Shown here: in pieces, positions 1-63,028 of the stretch | Layout of the letters: every line of letters begins with the position of its first letter | Position numbering within the stretch: position 1 is the first letter of the stretch | From: Zootoca vivipara | Taxonomy: Eukaryota | Length of the DNA stretch: 64,000 bases | Assembly (NCBI RefSeq): GCF_963506605.1 | Contig: NC_083282.1 | Coordinates: 46,128,001 to 46,192,000 of the forward strand | Direction: 5' to 3' | Position numbers and translations under genes: made by a program | The notes under the pieces: generated by a model | Database searches by the model: none | Seen by the model: the letters and a program-made list of their open reading frames with translations, nothing else | Told to the model about the DNA's origin: nothing

Positions 1-1326
1 AAGAATTTTTAACACTACCCATCGTTGTGCGCATTTTGGGTGGTTGGTATTCAGTCTCCATGGGGTATTTGGCCCCTGGCATTTAACATGAAGCTGGGCC
101 ATTTGAGTTGAGGGTCTGAACAAAAGTCAATTCGGGTTTACTTTCTCCAAGTCACCTTATCTGGAATTGCATCATCTCAGAAAAGAGAAAAATGACACGG
201 AATTTGGGTCCCCTTTGTGTGAGACAGTAGAGAAGAGCTTGCACACTTCATTCAGCTCCTTATCTCACTGGCTCAGGCTCAGCCACCAGCCAGGTCCCTC
301 AAAATACCCACCCTGTCCTCTCTCCATCCACCCTGTTCTCTATGTGCTACAGTTTATAGAGGCATCCTTTCATGCTGCCGATATCCTACAAACTATCTTG
401 GGCCACAGACAGACACAAAGACACCATGGCTGTCCCTTTTTCGCTGCCTGGCAGTACCACCTGGTCTCTAGCACAATGGCAGAGCTGACCTGGCACGTGA
501 CTAGGTGCACCAGGGTGGAAGGCAATTGCCTCCCATCTGTGTCCTCAGCGGCAGCTGTGCCCCTGTGCGTGTTTGGTGCCCTGAAGACTTCCCCTGCCCT
601 GAGCACTGGCTACGCTCTTTGCAGCCACGTGTGTGATTCTTGCAGCTTCTTCCCACTTCAGAGATGGGAATGGGCTGAAGGAATCAGGAATGACGGGGCA
701 GATATAAGTGCCTGCTAACCCAAACTCTGCATCCCCTCCCAGCCCTGCTCTCATTTTACCATCTTTGGGCATATGCTGAATGTAGACTGGGAAACGGCAA
801 CGTAATTTTTCCTGTAAAAAGAGATGGTCCTTGCAAATGCACCAGTCTTGGTCACATGTGTTTGTGTGTGTGTGTTCCCCTCATTGAAGATTTAGAGCAG
901 GAGTAACTACCCCTGGCCCAGAGGCCTGATCCAGCCACCTTCCCAAACCACCTCTCCCCCCCCCCCATTGGCAAAAAAAAGTAGTGCTGGTGGGGATGAA
1001 GTAAAGTAGACACGGAACTTGAGTGGTCAGGGAGGGTTTAAGCTTTCTGCTCAGCACCCTGATGGGGATGCAAATATCTCATTCTGTGGTCATCTGATCA
1101 ATCATTTGATGAGCAGAGATGGGCAATAACCCCCCTCCTTCCACATTGATCAGCTGGAGAGGGGAGTTCTGTCTGTGCGCATGTGCATGTGAGAATGTGA
1201 GGTGACTGCAATAACGTTTGGGCATACCCACCATTAGTATGTGGCCCCTGCAGGACTGGCCAGGAGTGAATGCAGCCCTTGAACCTCCTCTCCCCCTCAA
1301 AAAAAAGTTTTGTCACCCCTAACTGT

Positions 1327-1835
1327 GCCCAGAATTGTGTCCAGTTCTGGGCACCACAGTTCAAGAAGGATACTGACAAGCTGGAACGTGTCCAGAAGAG
1401 AGCAACGAAAATGGTCAAAGGCCTGGAAACGATGCCTTATGAGGAACGGCTTAGGGAGCTGGGTATGTTTAGCCTGGAGAAGAGAAGGTTAAGGGGTGAT
1501 ATGATAGCCATGTTCAAATATATAAAAGGATGTCATACAGAGGAGGGAGAAAGGTTGTTTTCTGCTGCTCCAGAGAAGTGGACATGGAGCAATGGATTCA
1601 AACTACAAGAAAGAAGATTCCACCTAAACATTAGGAAGAACTTCCTGACATTAAGAGCTGTTCGGCAGTGGAATTTGCTGCCAAGGAGTATGGTGGAGTC
1701 TCCTTCTTTGGAGGTCTTTAAGCAGAGGCTTGACAGGCATATGCCAAGAATGCTTTGGTGGTGTTTCCTGCTTGGCAGGGGGTTGGACTGGATGGCCCTT
1801 GTGGTCTCTTCCAACTCTATGATTCTATGATTCTA
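1327..1835 (+). mobile_element. CR1 LINE 3' fragment (5'-truncated)
   Basis: Uninterrupted ORF2 C-terminus CVQFWAPQFKKDTDKLERVQKRATKMVKGLE...LEKRRLRGDMI and terminal (ATTCTATG)n repeats. Confidence 0.93.
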
Positions 1836-2020: not shown

Positions 2021-44845
<42,825 letters not shown>

Positions 44846-52000: not shown

Positions 52001-55000
52001 TGATAAACATCCTATACTCTAAATGCTTTTACGAATATGGAGGGAAGAACTCCAGACTATTAGCAAACAGATGCAGGAAAAAAAATCACTCAAAACAAGT
52101 ATACACTGTATATACACTATAAAAAACGGTAGCATTAACATCCTCCACCAAAGAAATAACCTCAGAATTTTAAACCAACCTATACATCTCCCGCAACCCA
52201 CCTGAACAGGAAATCAGAAGATTCCTAACAGGGCTGACCATACCAACCTTAACTGCAAAGGAACAAAAATTCATGGAGGAACACCATCAAAAACACCCCC
52301 ACAACAGCACACCCATTTCTCCAAAACAAACTAAAGAAAATCCCCACAACACTGACGCAATCAAAGAACAATGGGAGCATGACATAAGCTATGAAATTAA
52401 CACCACCCAATGGACTAGAATGTGGTCTATACCTCCCTTTAAGTCCATATCAGCCAAAAGAAGGGAACTCACTCAGAAACTCACCTACAGGTGGCACTTA
52501 ACACCACAGAAACAAGAGCTGATATGCCCAGGAACCTCACCAAGGTGTTTGAGAGGCTGCACCTCCGCAGGCACATACCTCCACACATGGTGGAAATGCC
52601 CTATAATCCAACCCTTCTGGACAGCAGTCCTACAAGAGATATACAAAATAACTAAACAGGTATTAGAACTCACCCTAGAACTGGCCCTACTGAACATCTT
52701 CCAAGATCTTAATGACCACTCACAGTATAGAGATCTTACAACCCACCTACTCTCAGCAGCCAGAAGCCTCATAGCCAGACACTGGAGAGACCTGTCAGGA
52801 GTTAACATGAACCAATGGTATCAAATTGTATGGGAAACGGCCTTGCTAGAAAAGCTAACCAATAAACTGAAACTGACAAAGGAAAAATAGAAGAAAACAC
52901 CTTCACCCCAGTATGGTCCCCCTTTATCACAGCCCAAGAAGACAATGACAAGAATCCACCGACAGCATACGAATCAACCTGGCTTACCTGACCCAACAAG
53001 CCCTCCCCTCCTCACAAATGCAAACAAACCCCGCTGCAGCCAACCACAGACAACCAACCACACCCTGCTCCCCAATACATCTCACTACCAAGGAAATGTA
53101 ATAACGAATAGAAAGAGAACCTACCCAGTTGACACTGACACAGAACCCCACAGGTACACTATACAAAAGAATATAAGCCTCACCAGACCACCCTTCCTCT
53201 CCCCCCTCTTCTTCCCCAACCTTATACTGTACTCAACACTAATGTCTCACAGCAAATGTAACTGATTTGTAAGAAAGACTTGAAAAAAGAGACAAGGCAT
53301 GTACTTTTGCAAACCAAGAAAATCTTTAACAAAAATAAATTTAAAAGTAATAACTCAGACACAGCCCTGGAATTACGAGCCACAAGAACAGCATAACCAG
53401 CTTTCACACAGACACCTAAACTTGGAGTTGCTATCTTCATTTTGCCACAGATTTTGAGCAAGCATACCTCATGGATATGTACATACTAGCTGAATAAGCA
53501 AATAGACTTGAGACTGCTATTAAGTCTCTGGGATCTTAATCTATGGGACACCCAAATGCATAAACATTTTATCTAAAGCTATTATGGGGGTTTAAGCCTA
53601 AACTCTTGAATCCTCAAGATAAGTATATTCTTAAACAAAAGGAAATGTGCATTTAGGAAAACAAAAGCAAGCATAAAATCAGGCATATAAGAAAAACAAC
53701 ACATGCTAACAGATTACTGCCCTAGTTTTAGGTGTGATAGGGTTGGTCAAGAGCAGGCCTTCTCAACCTTGGGCCCTCCAGATGTTTTAAGACTACAATG
53801 TCCATCATCCCTGACCACTGGTCCTGCTAGCTAGGGATCATGGGAGTTGTAGGCCAAAAACATCTGGAGAGCCAAGGTTGAGGAAACCTGGTCAAGAGGA
53901 TACTGCTGTGAAAAAGGTCAATTCTATGTTGTGGATCATTAGGAAATAGAAGTGCTGATATCATAAAGCCATTATACAAATTGATTGTGAGACCACACTT
54001 GGAGTACCATGTACAGTTCAGGCTGCCTCACCTCAAAAAGGATATTGCAGAGCTGGAAAAGGTTCAGAAAAGAGCTACCAAAATGGTCAAAGGGGTGGAG
54101 CAACTCCCCTATGAGGAAAGGTTAGTTAAGATAAAAGGCAAATAAAGGGATATGCAGTGGAACCTCGGTTTATGAACACCTCGGTTTACGAATTTTCCGT
54201 TTACGAATGCCACGGACCCATCTAGAACGGATTAATTCACTTTCCATTACTTTCAATGGGAAAGTTCGCTTTAGTTTATGAACAGACTTCTGGAACCAAT
54301 TACACCCATGCTTCGGGTTAAGTACACTTCAGGTTAAGTACGGACTTCCAGAACCAATTACACTCATACTTCGGGTTAAGTACGCTTCAGGTTGAGTACT
54401 CCGCGGACCCATCTGGAACGGATTAATCCGCTTTCCATTACTTTCAATGGGAAAGTTCGCTTCAGTTTATGAACGCTTCAGTTTATGAACGCTTCAGTTT
54501 ATGAACAGACTACTGGAACCAATTGTGTTCATAAACCGAGGTACCACTGTATGACAATAGTGTAAGATTATGCATGGTATGAAGGAAGAGGATAGGGAGA
54601 AAAAAATGCCCCTCTCAAAATACTAGAACCCAGGGCCATCCAATGAAAGAATGATGGAAGATTCAGCACAGACAAAAGAAAGTACTTCTTCACACAGCAC
54701 ACAGCTGAACTATAGAATTCACTCCCACAAAATGTAGTGATGGCCACCAACTAACATGGCTCTAAAATATTAATACAAATCAGAAGTGCCAGCTTGGCCC
54801 CGCAACCGTGGGTGCCCAGGGTTGTGGGTACCATGTAGTGTGCATGGCCCTGGCACCAGAATTTGTGGGTGCCTGGCCACTTCATGAGGAATTTTGTGGG
54901 TGCTCGGGCACCCAGGGCCCCAGGGAGTTGGTACCTATGATACAAATTCATGGAAGATAAGGTTATCAGTGGCTACTTGCTGTGATGGCTATGTTCTGCA

Positions 55001-58000
55001 TCCACTGACAGAGGCAATATGCCTCTGAATACCTGTTGCTGGTAATCACAAGTGAGGAGACTGCTGTTGCAGTAGGTCCAGCTTATAGGCTTTCCATAGG
55101 CACCTGGCTGGCCATGTGAGAGCAGGATGCAGGAACAGATGGTCCTTTGGAGTGATCCAGCATAGCTCTGTTGATGTTGTTTTATGGTTAGCACAAGTTA
55201 TTAGTCTATCTTTAGTAGACTGCTCTAAGTTTCTTCAAATAGATATAAAGGAAAACATACTAGGGGTGGGAATCACCTAACCATCTCTGTCAGTGGAAGC
55301 CCTGCACAAAGATTTCTGCTTGCTCAATGGGTCTCCCCACCATAGCTACCAAGTTTTCCCTTTTCTCGCGAGGAAGCCTATTTAGCATAAGGGAATTTCC
55401 CTTTAAAAAAGGGAGAACTTGGCAGCTATGCTCCCCACCCCATTGATATTGCTCCATCTTAGCGGGCTGGGTCTGTAATTTCACAGCATCTCTGACTTAA
55501 CTTTAAGGTGCCATCCAAAATGGAGACTTATAATTTAAGTGGGCACACCACTGCTAATTCTACACATGCATAATATGCATATCTATATAAATAATACAAG
55601 CACATTTCTAGATTAATACCACAATGGGACTGAAACTAGCACGGAGGCCAATTCATTGCAAGTCCCCGCTCCTGGTACTTGTATGAGGATCAAATGGGAT
55701 AATAGTGATCAGCCCCAAACTGCCCACAGATGCAAAAAGAACCAATTGCTGCTAGGTTTCTAAGTATATGGCACTCTGTGATGTTAGGCTTCCTACAGGC
55801 AAAACCAGTCCTGGATTCTGAGAACTCCTGTGGTGATACAGTTCCTGGTGTTCTGGGTAAGAACAAGTCACAGCCCAGAAGCTCATTGTGTGGAGGCTGC
55901 AGCTTCCTTCAGTCTTACCTGACTAGGGCACTGCTCCCAGATGAAGACTGACTATTGCCAGAATTTCCCTTCAGTGCAAAGGTGACCACATGGGGGCTGT
56001 ATTTAGCAATGGCACAATCTTGGTTCCTGTGAAGCAGAAAAAAGTACAGCCATAAGGCAATTGTTAATCCCCAGTCTTTGGGCTGACAAGGACAAGAGAA
56101 GACCAGTTTGTGGCAGTGCTAGGTCACAAAACCACCCAGTAGCTGGAATGAATAGAAGCCTAAAAGGAAAAAAAAAGCTGGACTAAAGAGCCCAGCAAGG
56201 TCCAACTTTCCATACCAAATAGTCCCACAAAAGTACTTTGACACAGAACCAATAGAACAAATACTGTATTGTGTGGTGGGGAGACTGAGGCAAAAATTTG
56301 ATGCCCCCCCAGTCCTTGCTCTGCCTTCCCAAAGCCAGCTAAGTGAGATAACAGGCTTTGGGAGGGTCCTAGAGCACTCCAGGGAAGCACTAATGAGGCT
56401 TTGGGCAGGAGACAGGAGACAGGAAGACCCTGTCAGAGCCTTTACACCTCCTTCGCTAAGCCTAGTGCCTTGCTTATCTGGCTTTGGGAAGGCAATATGA
56501 GGGCTGGGGAGGGTGTCAAATGTTGCCCAGGGCCAACAAAACAGGCCTCGGGGGCTACATTAGACCACACAGTTCCAGGCAGTACACAGGGAGCCATGGC
56601 CTGTGCTCATGTCAATGTGGGGAAATTCAACACAAGGGGAGCTATTTAAAAGTAAGTAAACAAATGCAGAATTTTAGGTTGTGACTGAGAGATAGTACAG
56701 TAGAAAGGTTTGAAGGGTGTGAAGGGATTCTCCGATATGGCAACATGGTACAAACAACTCCAGCATGAGGAGTTTGAGAGCTCATCCCTTACTAGCCAGC
56801 CTGTTCTATTCCATGCCTTCATTGGTTACACAGGGCTAAGGCAGGGAGCAAATCCTCAGGCAAGGGTTCCAGCAGGTGCTGATCCCAGTGCTCACTCGGA
56901 TGAATGCTCACTTTGAACTTGGAGGTGGGACATAATCCCAGCCTCAGGCTATGGACTGAACACACCATAAAAAACAAACGCACTAGCAGGACTGGCATTC
57001 TTGACAGAGGCACTCAGGAATGTGATTCCTGCATGATGTAAAGGGAGTTAAGTGGGAATGACAAAGGCTATATGGCTGAGCCCCAAAGAATGGTAATGTA
57101 AGGCTGGAATTAATTCTACAGATAAAAAAGACAAGAGAGACACACAAACTGACAAGCTGCACTTGAATGGGGAGCGCAAGTTACAGATGGAGGTGTATGG
57201 TGCAAACATATGTTTGGCACAAGTTATTTTCGCTGGACATCGGCCATCTGAGTGGCAGTCATGTTGAAACTATACTGGAACTGCCAATTAAATTGCATTG
57301 GAACTGATATTTCCTACGTAGTAAGCATTTCTGAAACAGTCACCCTTAGAAGGCAAAGGGAGAAAGAATACTGCGTCAATAGTGTAAACATATAGTTTAG
57401 TCACTAGGTGGCACTGGACTTATGTATATCTGAGTGGAATCAGAGGTTTCCCCCCCATCCTGTTGCTGTTGAAGTAAGTTATTCTCTAGCCTCCTAACTG
57501 ATTTGTCTCATGAAACTAAGCCTTTCATAACAAATAATGGCTTCCTCAATCTGGACTATCAAAAGATGATATAAAACTCACCCATTCCAAACACATAAAT
57601 ACCACCAGCCACAACAGTTGGAAACTAATGGGCTCATTCTTATATCAAATAGGCTTCAGGTCTTAAGATATTCTGCTTGCTTGTCTTCTATCCCTACTAC
57701 TTGCTCCCCCTCAACTCAGCCCTTAATTCTCTCAAGTCCCTTTTCTTCTGATCTCTCCAGTACCTGCCTTCCTGCAATGCCTTCTGCTGTAGACCAATTA
57801 GAAGAAGGCGGATCTCCTCCCTCACCAGCTCCTTGAGGTTGGGGGGAGCTGCCAGCAAGGCCCAGCTGTCAGCTGCTTGCAGTGGGCTTTGTTCCACTCC
57901 AAGGGGGGCTGACTGCAACTCCTGATGGAATTCCAACAGTGTTTGCACCTGTAAATAGGGAAGGGGTTGGACTGCATTAGGAACAGTGCATAGCCACATG

Positions 58001-59823: not shown

Positions 59824-61424
59824 GGGTGCTTTATCCGATTCCACGATAAATGAAGCTTTAAAGGAAAAAAAGGTTGTGCCAATGAGACAGTGAGTAGAAG
59901 CTCCACATCACAACTACTCGGTGCCACATGCAGTGGTGCACCTAGGTAATTTTAGACACTGAACTTAATGGGCTGCTGCCCTCCCAAGATTCACAAATAT
60001 TATTGAAAAGCATTGAAAGTATTCAATTCTGAGGTTCTGCCCCCCCCCAACAGAAGCCTGGTCCCCCGCAATGTCCTATTTATGAGCTATTTTCACCCAT
60101 GATTTCCCAAGAAAAGCTCAACAACTTTGTCCCTCCCCAACTAAAATCCTGGCCACATCCATGGTTTTACACTCCTCTCCCATTAGACAGCCACACATAT
60201 TACATTTGTCAGTTGTCAGTCGTAAGGTAAGCCATTCCCATGTTTTACAACTGCTCCTACATTCCTGATACACAATAAATAAATGGTTGTGAAATACTCT
60301 GAGCATGAACAGTTTCACATTCTAAACTCACTTAAGTCATAGCACTAGCATTACAGGAATACAATGGAATTTGCTTCTGCTGCCCTGATGTTAAACACAT
60401 ATTTGGGGGGAGAAAGCACCAAGGATGAAAGTAAAAGTAAAAAATTGGACTATATGGAGAAGAACTGTAGAAGTTTAAAGACACTTGCAGGACTGAAATA
60501 AATCCTACAAATTGACTTTAAGTAGAAGGAATAAAGGAACTGTGAGATAGGAATGGATAAGAAAACCGATTGGGGGGAAGGAGGGAAGTCAAAGCTTGGC
60601 AGAGCAAAGAAAATTGTAATAATTGATAAGATGCTAAGAAGAAAATTGTTTGTGTTTATTATGTTTATTATGTGTTGTTGTGTTTGTGGTTGTATGTTTT
60701 GTTTTTGTTTAAATGTGTTTAATTGGAAATTTTAATAGTCTTTAAAAAAATAAAAAATAAAGAAAGTAAAAGTAAAAAATAAAATATAGTGCCATGTACA
60801 TGCCTGTCTAACCACCCTCTGACTAAAACTGTTGTAGAAAATAAGGATGTGGCTGTGAGTACCATCAGCCCCAATAGACCACAACATGCCCATCATGCCA
60901 GCCCAGGTGTTGCCACAGGTCGTTTGTTCCTGACTCCATCACCTGACACTCTCTAGATGGCCATTTGAGGCACCTCATTTTTGTGGGGCTCTGTACTTTC
61001 CCCGCGTTGCACTACTGTCTACAAATCATGTTACTTGCACTCACCTTTCTCCCACGTTGGCCACCAGAGAATAACTGCATATAATTTTTCCTGCTCCCCA
61101 TATACCAAACTCATACCTTCACATTAACCCCCAGAGCCACATTAATTCCCGTTAATCGTTATAGCCTCAAATGTAACCTATTGCCCATTATCCCCCCCCC
61201 GGTAGTTGCTCCCCAGTGCTTAACTCACCTACGTCTCGGCCCACCGAGCCCACTTCCGCCCCAGGCCTTTTACTCTCCCCACACTTCCTACGGACTCACG
61301 GATATAACTCTGCGGTAGCCCTCACCTGCGACACCGGGCGGAGGGGCGGAGGGCCAGGCGTCTTGCCCTATCCGATTCCCCTCCCCCCTCTGCCCCCTCC
61401 AGCTCTCTGGAATATAAACTCGCC

Positions 61425-61438
61425 GTCTCCATGGAAAC
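61425..61438. promoter_or_regulatory. RFX X-box GTCTCCATGGAAAC
   Basis: 14-bp imperfect palindrome of the GTYNCCATGGNAAC type near the inferred CCDC24 transcription start. Confidence 0.55.
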
Positions 61439-62232
61439 GCCCCGCCGCGTTCCTCTGAAGCCTCGCCTCTTAAAGGAGCCGTGCCCAGGAGGCAGTCAGG
61501 ATGTCGGTCGAGCGTGGAGACGGGGATTCCGTGGGAAGGAAGCGTGTGCATTGAAGCTATTGGCGCGCCCGCGCATGCATCCAAGCAATCAGAGGTAAAG
61601 AGCAGTCACGCGTCCGCCAGTTTTGATTCGGGAGTGGTCCCAGTGGCTTTACGCTTTGGCAACAGTACAGTATTGAGAAACTTCTTTCTTTGCCCATTGA
61701 TGTTCCTAGGAATAGGGGGGGGGAGGGAGAGAGAGAGAGAGATCCAGCGCCGCGCGTGTTTTGGGAGGCCACGGAGACTGGGAACTGTGGAGACGCAGCA
61801 TTGGCTCCCCGGATGAGTGTTCGAGGGGTTTGGAGTGGAGCGAGCCGGGCACGAACGAAGAGGAGAGCACAGTGGACTTAGGCTTTTCCTGAGGTGCAGA
61901 TAGAGGGCAAGGTCCCTCCCACCGCCCCGGTCCCGCCCGCTCCGTTGGGGAGGGGGTGCTGTGCCCCTGGGCGGGCTCGGGTTGCAAGAAGGGGCGGGCC
62001 AGGCCGGGCGGCGGCTGCACAAAGGCCGAGGCACGCCAGGGCGGTTATTAGCCGCAGCTTCAGCAGGCAACCTCCCGGCGGGACCCCGCGGGCGGCGTTG
62101 GGGCGGACTGGATGCCCACTCTCCCCGCCAGCTCTCCTCCGCTTCGCTCCCCTACTGCTGCTGCTGCTGCTGCTACTCTGCTCCTCCCTCTCGCCAACTC
62201 CCATGCCCATCACCTGTCCCTCGAGTTCAGCG

Positions 62233-62559
62233 ATGCCCTTTCCGTTGGCACAGCTGAGCTTAGCGCCGCTGCTGCTGCTGCTGACTCTGGTGCCCATCCC
62301 AGGACTGGCAGGGCCAGTGACCACGTGCGATGCCAACGGGAGCCTGTACTACGTTGGGGAGTGGTATTTCCTGGACAGTGACCACTGCACCCAGTGCGAG
62401 TGCACAGCGGAGGGGCCCGCCTGCGCCCGCACGGACTGCACCTCTCTGCCACCTGCCTGCATTCACGTCAGCCACTACCCCAGCGACTGCTGCCCACGCT
62501 GCGAAAGGGTTGGCTGCGAGCACCGTGGACAAGTGTATGAGCTGGGGCAGCATTTCCAG
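62233..62559 (+). CDS. First coding exon of a secreted VWC-domain protein, brorin (VWC2/VWC2L)-like paralog; the gene continues beyond the window
   Basis: Signal peptide MPFPLAQLSLAPLLLLLTLVPIPGLAG, then a full 10-Cys VWC domain (CDANGSLYYVGEWYFLDSDHCTQCECTAEGPACARTDCTSLPPACIHVSHYPSDCCPRC) and the start of a second (GCEHRGQVYELGQHFQ); donor CAG|gtaagg, phase 0. An alternative in-frame ATG lies at 62203. Confidence 0.88.
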
Positions 62560-63028
62560 GTAAGGCATACACGGGAGAATTAGGCAAAGGGGTGAGATGG
62601 GGGTGGCATGAGAAGGAATCTAGAGCGAGGTGGGCAGGGTTGGGTGGGTGATGGATGGGCAAATGAGGATATTCAAAAGCAGGAGAAAAGGCGAATGCTC
62701 CTGAAAAAGGCACTGTCTAAGAATCGCAAGCGGTCACTTCTGTTTCTTAAATCTTGTTCTTAAAGGGAGGCCTAGGCAGGAGAGTAAGGGACTGGAAGCA
62801 GGAATTCTGGGTGTCTCTTTATAGTTTGTTCATTACTGGCTGAAGGCAGCAAAATAAAATACAAACAAAACTGATAAATTGCATTTTTCCAAAGTGGGTG
62901 AGAAGCACCAAATCAAAAGTGCTCTATGAAGCTGGAGGTACTCTTAAGATGTTCCCATAAAACCAAAGCTCTTTGATAATTCAGAAGGCAATTTTATTGG
63001 CTCTAGTACCTAGCTGAGCATCCTTTGA

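Follow-up and report, generated by a model that had tools for sequence, protein, structure and literature searches.

The window analyzed here is a 64,000-nucleotide stretch of the Zootoca vivipara genome (contig NC_083282.1, positions 46,128,001 to 46,192,000 of the forward strand), which carries close to its end the first coding exon (109 codons; 62233..62559, + strand) of a zgc:113531-type brorin-family gene, as identified by translation and homology. The stop-free frame on the + strand covers 62203-62559 (119 aa), with an in-frame upstream ATG at 62203 that would add 10 residues to the product started at ATG 62233. We consider ATG 62233 to be the more likely translation start, because it has the better Kozak context (G at position -3, vs C for ATG 62203) and because the annotated starts of two snake proteins align with it. 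The length of 109 aa given in the preliminary description of this DNA is thus retained, but the span 62203-62559 that accompanied it begins at the less likely of the two start codons. The in-frame extension on the 5′ side of 62203 is long and has no ATG, and was therefore rejected as coding sequence and taken as 5′ UTR.

The exon ends in a phase-0 junction reading CAG/GTAAGG (splice donor GTAAGG, 62560..62565, + strand), from which the intron continues past the window end. Exactly the same junction is used by five of the 14 examined named models with a different first exon (P0042, P0045, P0050, P0054 and P0097), and two of the 14 (P0062 and P0067) part company directly after it, in agreement with the initial proposal of a phase-0 intron inside the second VWC domain. 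Against a profile of 21 named orthologues, the window peptide scores 188 bits, compared to 7.6 bits for the best of 1000 shuffles, and the profile matches only one of the 1771 six-frame segments of the window at E<0.09. A tblastn search of five full-length orthologues against the window matches exon 1 alone; exons 2 and 3 are situated beyond the window end. A Gekko japonicus protein matches the exon with 88% identity across 94% of the query length, and the exon sits on a short branch (0.047) in a tree of 25 rows.

We note several minor features around the start of this exon. An out-of-frame ATG at 62112 opens an 89-codon ORF (62112-62381, + strand) that overlaps the start of the coding sequence and could damp translation if included in the transcript. 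The first residues of the Phrynocephalus model P0003 match the frame of this upstream ORF, which suggests an indel or an assembly error in the Phrynocephalus genome. Furthermore, short CTG/GCT repeats are found at 62155-62182, in the 5′ UTR, and at 62268-62283, where they encode the leucine run of the signal peptide.

The encoded peptide begins with a putative signal peptide (62233..62310, + strand), assigned from hydropathy and from alignment with 18 named relatives, in which the hydrophobic stretch peaks at a Kyte-Doolittle value of 2.5 around residues 19-33 of the 119-aa reading and cleavage is probable, as judged by eye, after residue 36 or 37. No second hydrophobic stretch that could form a transmembrane segment is visible in the aligned orthologues. 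VWC domain 1, of the procollagen-IIA/chordin type with 10 cysteines (C42-C100; 62326..62502, + strand), starts within ~5 residues of the hydrophobic leader and is recognized by the Pfam family VWC2L_1st (PF23333) at 53.8 bits (cut-off 27), with the generic Pfam VWC family reaching 22 bits on the window peptide, under its cut-off of 27.6. Identity of this domain to the column majority falls between 76 and 95% for all but one of the 21 orthologues, and an N-glycosylation sequon at 62335-62343 is found in six of the eight relatives checked. The first 15 residues of VWC domain 2 follow (62515..62559, + strand; alignment and tblastn), cut by the intron. This arrangement, a signal peptide followed by VWC domains in an open frame, is what the preliminary description had read from the sequence, and the absence of an acidic N-terminal segment that it reported holds equally, with no D/E ahead of the first VWC cysteine in the window protein. 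Among the 22 named relatives listed, 21 have zero to two such residues and the remaining one has seven.

Both VWC domains, the second of which lies only partly inside the window, are present with identical cysteine spacing in six of six full-length orthologues. All six match the three VWC2L-specific Pfam families PF23333, PF23334 and PF23331, the last of which is a C-terminal cysteine module (50-60 bits, vs a cut-off of 27) that lies outside the window in the present case. The predicted product is thus a protein of ~210-230 aa, probably secreted, consisting of a signal peptide, two VWC domains and a six-cysteine brorin C-terminal module. In the annotated gar isoform X2 (P0025), the final cysteines of VWC domain 2 are missing, which apparently reflects the use of an alternative splice site.

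Head-to-head with the VWC gene lies CCDC24, of which one exon is identified at 57760..57948 (- strand; Pfam PF15669, 41.8 bits), while its first coding exon, placed tentatively near 59.8 kb, has no Pfam match. The two genes are separated by the sole CpG island in the window by the criteria used (61001..62500). The VWC exon sits in this island, a region with GC boxes and one TATAAA at 61413, which is probably the shared bidirectional promoter of the two genes. One exon of SLC6A9 (GlyT1) is found at 41152..41400 (+ strand; Pfam PF00209), with GlyT1 as its top solved-structure match (E 2e-46, followed by the next transporter at 5e-31), and further SNF-family exons lie near 36.9 kb and 44.3 kb. 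The remainder of the window includes an assembly gap at ~49.27-49.47 kb (204 N in the window) and long ORFs at 1270-1827 (+) and 52174-52887 (+) without a Pfam match, which we take to resemble the ends of CR1-type and L1-type retrotransposons, respectively.

The order slc6a9-ccdc24-gene-b4galt2 is also that of zebrafish, and in the lizard it is seen as far as SLC6A9 and CCDC24, with B4GALT2 beyond the window. Zebrafish zgc:113531 is placed at chr2:33,474,092-33,483,153, 34.5 kb beyond slc6a9 (PMC5690287), and ccdc24 and b4galt2 lie in the same region with a 21.5-kb gap between them (Lawson gene table), which leaves room for the 9-kb zgc:113531 gene; these coordinates are drawn from two tables that apparently use different assemblies, that of the Lawson table apparently being the later. 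The synteny check in fish that had been proposed thus gives a shared neighborhood on zebrafish chr2. In placental mammals the order is B4GALT2, CCDC24, SLC6A9 according to a figure legend in PMC3820594, in line with the adjacency of B4GALT2 and CCDC24 in human given in the preliminary description; this legend, which was not written as a test of absence, names no intervening gene.

A search with the full-length gecko protein returned 95 proteins, of which 37 carry species names; the other 58 were left out, and each row represents a 90% cluster whose other members are hidden. The named matches comprise five squamates, four turtles, three amphibians, one lungfish, one gar, 20 teleosts and three cartilaginous fish, with no bird, crocodilian or mammal among the 37, and a sturgeon orthologue was added by a further homology search. 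UniRef names three of the matches Zgc:113531, and the gecko protein is 67-76% identical to these three; the window peptide itself shows 85% identity to Hippocampus Zgc:113531 over 68% of the peptide. Mature-region identity ranges from 62 to 94% among the 21 named orthologues (210 pairs), and is 75-76% between the gecko and both shark and ray. In the tree of 25 rows, the window exon falls inside the squamates (98/93) and the three Zgc:113531-named proteins inside the teleosts (97/94); this tree has no outgroup and no VWC2 or VWC2L rows, such that paralogy is outside its scope. This is an old jawed-vertebrate gene, older than the split of sharks and bony vertebrates, rather than a reptile speciality. 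The preliminary description had it kept in reptiles and lost in mammals; no mammal was found, but the gene also occurs in amphibians, lungfish, ray-finned fish and sharks, and birds apparently lack it too.

In a 50%-cluster library, 15 rows align with the query over a single stretch of at least 150 residues, one at 74% identity and 14 at 34-44% (counted by eye). Five proteins of the lower tier, from rows without names, are 311-341 aa long, and their match begins at residue 141-166, which fits the layout of brorin (309 aa, with a 127-aa N-terminal region); this second tier presumably includes brorins. Word-based homology searches, one of them focused on the region shared most widely, returned no named VWC2 or VWC2L protein.

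Among the four turtle models (P0026, P0038, P0042 and P0054), the VWC1 domain of Emys is 63% identical to the column majority and has no N-glycan sequon, the first domain of the Gopherus model is scrambled, and two other models are without the first domain. Exon 1 thus looks eroded in turtles, through either relaxed selection or assembly trouble in GC-rich sequence.

The orthologue group to which we assign the window gene has been catalogued before. Table S10 of Hara et al. 2018 (PMC5901865) lists the group AmnPhylome_0003149_sub_001 as "elusive", with five squamates, Xenopus, coelacanth, gar, zebrafish (ENSDARG00000038794) and stickleback as members; neither a bird nor a mammal was found in a search that covered transcriptomes as well as 112 mammalian and 68 avian gene sets. 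VWC2L is given in the same table as a separate, non-elusive paralog present in 19 of 19 species, its group holding zebrafish vwc2l together with gecko, anole, python and garter-snake proteins (PMC5901865). The two zebrafish identifiers, ENSDARG00000038794 and ENSDARG00000069134, correspond to zgc:113531 and vwc2l, respectively (PMC7486121), and the gene pair comes first in both panels of the expression heat map of Hara et al. (PMC5901865). Taken together, the UniRef name, the sequence identity and the synteny place the window gene in the elusive group, and the gecko protein matched here is, we infer, XP_015278445.1 of that study (Gekko japonicus LOC107120292). By definition, elusive genes occur in two or more reptiles plus an outgroup and are missing from mammals and birds, which is the pattern of both the published table and the 37 named matches obtained here. 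We find no gene-level difference from the published group, as the orthologue group, the slc6a9/ccdc24 setting and the taxon pattern are the same; sharks, lungfish, sturgeon and turtles are added here. Both turtles of the published table were scored 0 (PMC5901865) and yet four turtle models were found here, such that the absences in birds and crocodilians could partly be artifacts. That such a gene exists, is a paralog of VWC2L and is lacking in mammals and birds was therefore already on record in 2018; the gene carries annotations throughout the jawed vertebrates, and the evolutionary reading is not new.

We thus read the locus as exon 1 of the squamate orthologue of zgc:113531, a brorin-family paralog apart from VWC2 and VWC2L that predates the split of sharks and bony vertebrates and is not found in mammals or birds, and assign this reading a probability of roughly 95%. 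Its membership in the zgc:113531 group follows the high identity to the proteins so named and the adjacency to ccdc24/slc6a9 in both the window and zebrafish chr2. That the locus could instead be VWC2L itself (or VWC2) is extremely unlikely, even though most named matches carry the VWC2L name and all three VWC2L Pfam domains match: the published gene-tree table sets the zgc:113531 group apart, lists distinct VWC2L proteins for its squamates and for zebrafish, and has VWC2L in each of its 19 species (PMC5901865), whereas the 37 named matches obtained here include no mammal or bird; to this the synteny can be added. VWC2-type features are likewise not seen, the first VWC cysteine being ~5 residues past the signal peptide and the neighbors being CCDC24 and SLC6A9, unlike brorin, which has a 127-aa N-terminal region and ikzf1/fignl1 linkage in zebrafish (PMC5407822). 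Only slightly more probable, and still very improbable, is that Zootoca vivipara carries a decaying or untranslated remnant. Exons 2 and 3 do lie outside the window, an out-of-frame ORF overlaps the start, and exon 1 is eroded in turtle models; however, the lizard frame is open, every cysteine is kept, the donor is intact, and both the identity to gecko and the short branch speak against decay. The separate paralog put forward in the preliminary description is thus supported by the published gene tree, the three Pfam domains and the synteny.

In comparison to its relatives, the gene shares with VWC2L a similar size and the same three Pfam domains, and VWC2L is named as its closest non-elusive paralog, but VWC2L forms its own orthologue group and is kept in mammals and birds (PMC5901865). 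VWC2L is also described as neural. With brorin (VWC2) it shares the signal peptide, the two 10-cysteine VWC domains and, presumably, two coding-region introns, since fragment boundaries at query positions 130-176 and 173-228 point to three coding exons in the zgc:113531 group; brorin differs in being neural and in having demonstrated BMP antagonism (PMC5407822). The numbering of the gene as a "third" paralog is uncertain, as a zebrafish gene si:dkey-283b1.7 (ENSDARG00000053460) also exists (PMC7486121), of which no mention was found in the literature searched. VWC2L probably also differs in a longer acidic N-terminal segment, and the position of the first intron in the zgc:113531 group is, we assume, equivalent to that in brorin. 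In turn, si:dkey-283b1.7 is a candidate member of the brorin family, in which case there would be at least four paralogs, the present gene included.

Structural comparison by Foldseek places the gecko model with the VWC domain of collagen 2A (probability 1.00, rmsd 2.9 Å over 58 columns, E 0.04), and also matches the CCN3 VWC, CV2 VWC1 and NELL proteins. The VWC domains of the model are confident, but with a mean pLDDT of 73 and a pTM of 0.41 the packing of domains is unreliable. A wide structural fold search gave Z values of at most 5.0, too weak to add support. The best solved relative of the orthologue profile is VWC1 of Crossveinless-2 (CV2/BMPER; E 4e-4), and no solved brorin structure was found by sequence search of solved structures, in which matches to a DnaJ-type zinc finger, RGS4 and a sirtuin were discarded as cysteine-rich noise. 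All 19 aligned rows have Gly46, Gly52 and Trp54, and Tyr49 is nearly invariant; Gly, Tyr and Trp are described as marks of the procollagen-IIA/chordin class of VWC domains and not of the CV2 class (PMC6270503, section 2.5), and the CV2-type clip and loop insertion are not recognizable in the zgc:113531-type protein. Thus, although the chordin-family VWC domains (procollagen IIA, CCN3, CV2/BMPER VWC1) have the same fold in a different architecture, the CV2 binding mode is not transferable. VWC domains also occur in proteins without BMP binding, and their sequence gives no binding code (PMC6270503, section 2.5).

Expression of the zebrafish orthologue was followed in a single-cell table of whole larvae at 5 dpf, that is, in one dataset, one stage and one species, where zgc:113531 appears in the marker lists of two of the 62 clusters (6 and 52). 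In cluster 6, it is detected in 54% vs 7% of cells (adjusted p 4e-212), with col2a1a, otos (otospiralin), matn4, col9a1-3 and cnmd among the leading markers, and also sox9a; in cluster 52 it is detected in 39% vs 9% of cells, with hmx4, dlx5a, stc2a, rbm24a and matn4 among the markers listed. Reading from these markers, we label cluster 6 as chondrogenic or periotic cells and cluster 52 as otic epithelium. Cluster 22, which the authors themselves designate as cartilage, does not have zgc:113531 in its marker list. Neither marked cluster is neuronal by its markers, which weakly suggests that zgc:113531 is a non-neural paralog; vwc2 and vwc2l are likewise in none of the 62 lists, such that this table is a weak test of neural expression. 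The preliminary description proposed a candidate BMP modulator and described VWC2 and VWC2L as neural; the expression data found for the present gene point to collagen-II and otic cells and not to neurons.

In the literature searched, which covers few subscription journals and no supplements and may miss "zgc:113531" in running text, we found no functional study or BMP-binding assay of a zgc:113531-type gene. The term "largely uncharacterised" used at the outset is thus apt in terms of function, but the gene, having been catalogued in 2018, is no discovery. By analogy with its relatives, we somewhat favor a role as a secreted protein that would bind and modulate BMPs in the matrix of cartilage-type tissue and the inner ear. 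Cells that produce collagen II and cells of the inner ear would release it into their matrix, where its VWC domains would bind BMP ligands and local pSMAD1/5/8 signaling would be lowered or reshaped, as by brorin in neural tissue; secretion, BMP binding, the sign of the effect and expression in the same tissues of reptiles are all, in this proposal, what we infer, next to the exon, domains, orthologues, synteny and zebrafish marker expression, which are observed. Brorin blocks BMP2/6-induced Smad phosphorylation, its overexpression removes pSmad in zebrafish, and its activity is placed in the two-VWC core (PMC5407822). As VWC sequence is not predictive of BMP binding, BMP modulation by the present protein would follow from family membership. 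Weighing against this role are the occurrence of VWC domains in proteins that do not bind BMPs, the distance of the second-tier proteins, presumably brorins among them, at 34-44% identity, and the unrecognizable CV2-type clip and loop insertion.

It is possible, though clearly less probable, that the same gene does not block BMP at all and that its product acts as a small matrix adaptor in cartilage-type or otic matrix, or as a ligand for another partner, such as TGF-beta or activin, chordin/Tsg with a pro-BMP effect, or a surface receptor. BMP binding varies widely among VWC domains (PMC6270503), the co-markers of cluster 6 are mostly matrix proteins, CD36 has been reported as a non-BMP partner of VWC2L on the basis of cell-surface staining (PMC9578707), and the strong conservation of VWC1 noted above implies a fixed partner without naming it. 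Weighing against such an adaptor is that BMP signaling is central to cartilage and ear development. In addition, the two family members that have been studied are both termed BMP antagonists, with an activity placed in the two-VWC core. A role mainly in the nervous system, like that of brorin and brorin-like and including extracellular AMPA-receptor complexes, appears improbable. Both brorin and brorin-like are neural proteins that have been found in purifications of AMPA receptors (PMC6502786, PMC12422955), and low or sparse neural expression of the present gene would be compatible with the marker lists, but the two clusters that do list it are not neuronal by their markers, within the limits of a table that tests neural expression weakly.

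If the favored reading of a BMP modulator in cartilage-type and inner-ear matrix is extended to the family as a whole, one can tentatively envisage an early split of the brorin family into neural members and a skeletal/otic BMP modulator, the latter retained across lineages from sharks through to lizards, in the process of erosion in turtles, and lost by separate events in mammals and archosaurs, although we regard this scenario as rather doubtful. If true, the loss would have changed local BMP control in the skeleton or ear and, more speculatively, could bear on the differing cartilage formation or regeneration in lizards, amphibians and fish. At a more immediate level, the locus encodes part of a conserved, putatively secreted protein that, judging from zebrafish, may have a role outside the nervous system, in collagen-II and otic cells, and since its database name is shared with VWC2L, fish and reptile transcriptomes may be mislabeled. 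We also note a database misannotation at P0054, where a Platysternon entry named "lysine-specific demethylase 3B" is really exons 2-3 of a zgc:113531-type gene.
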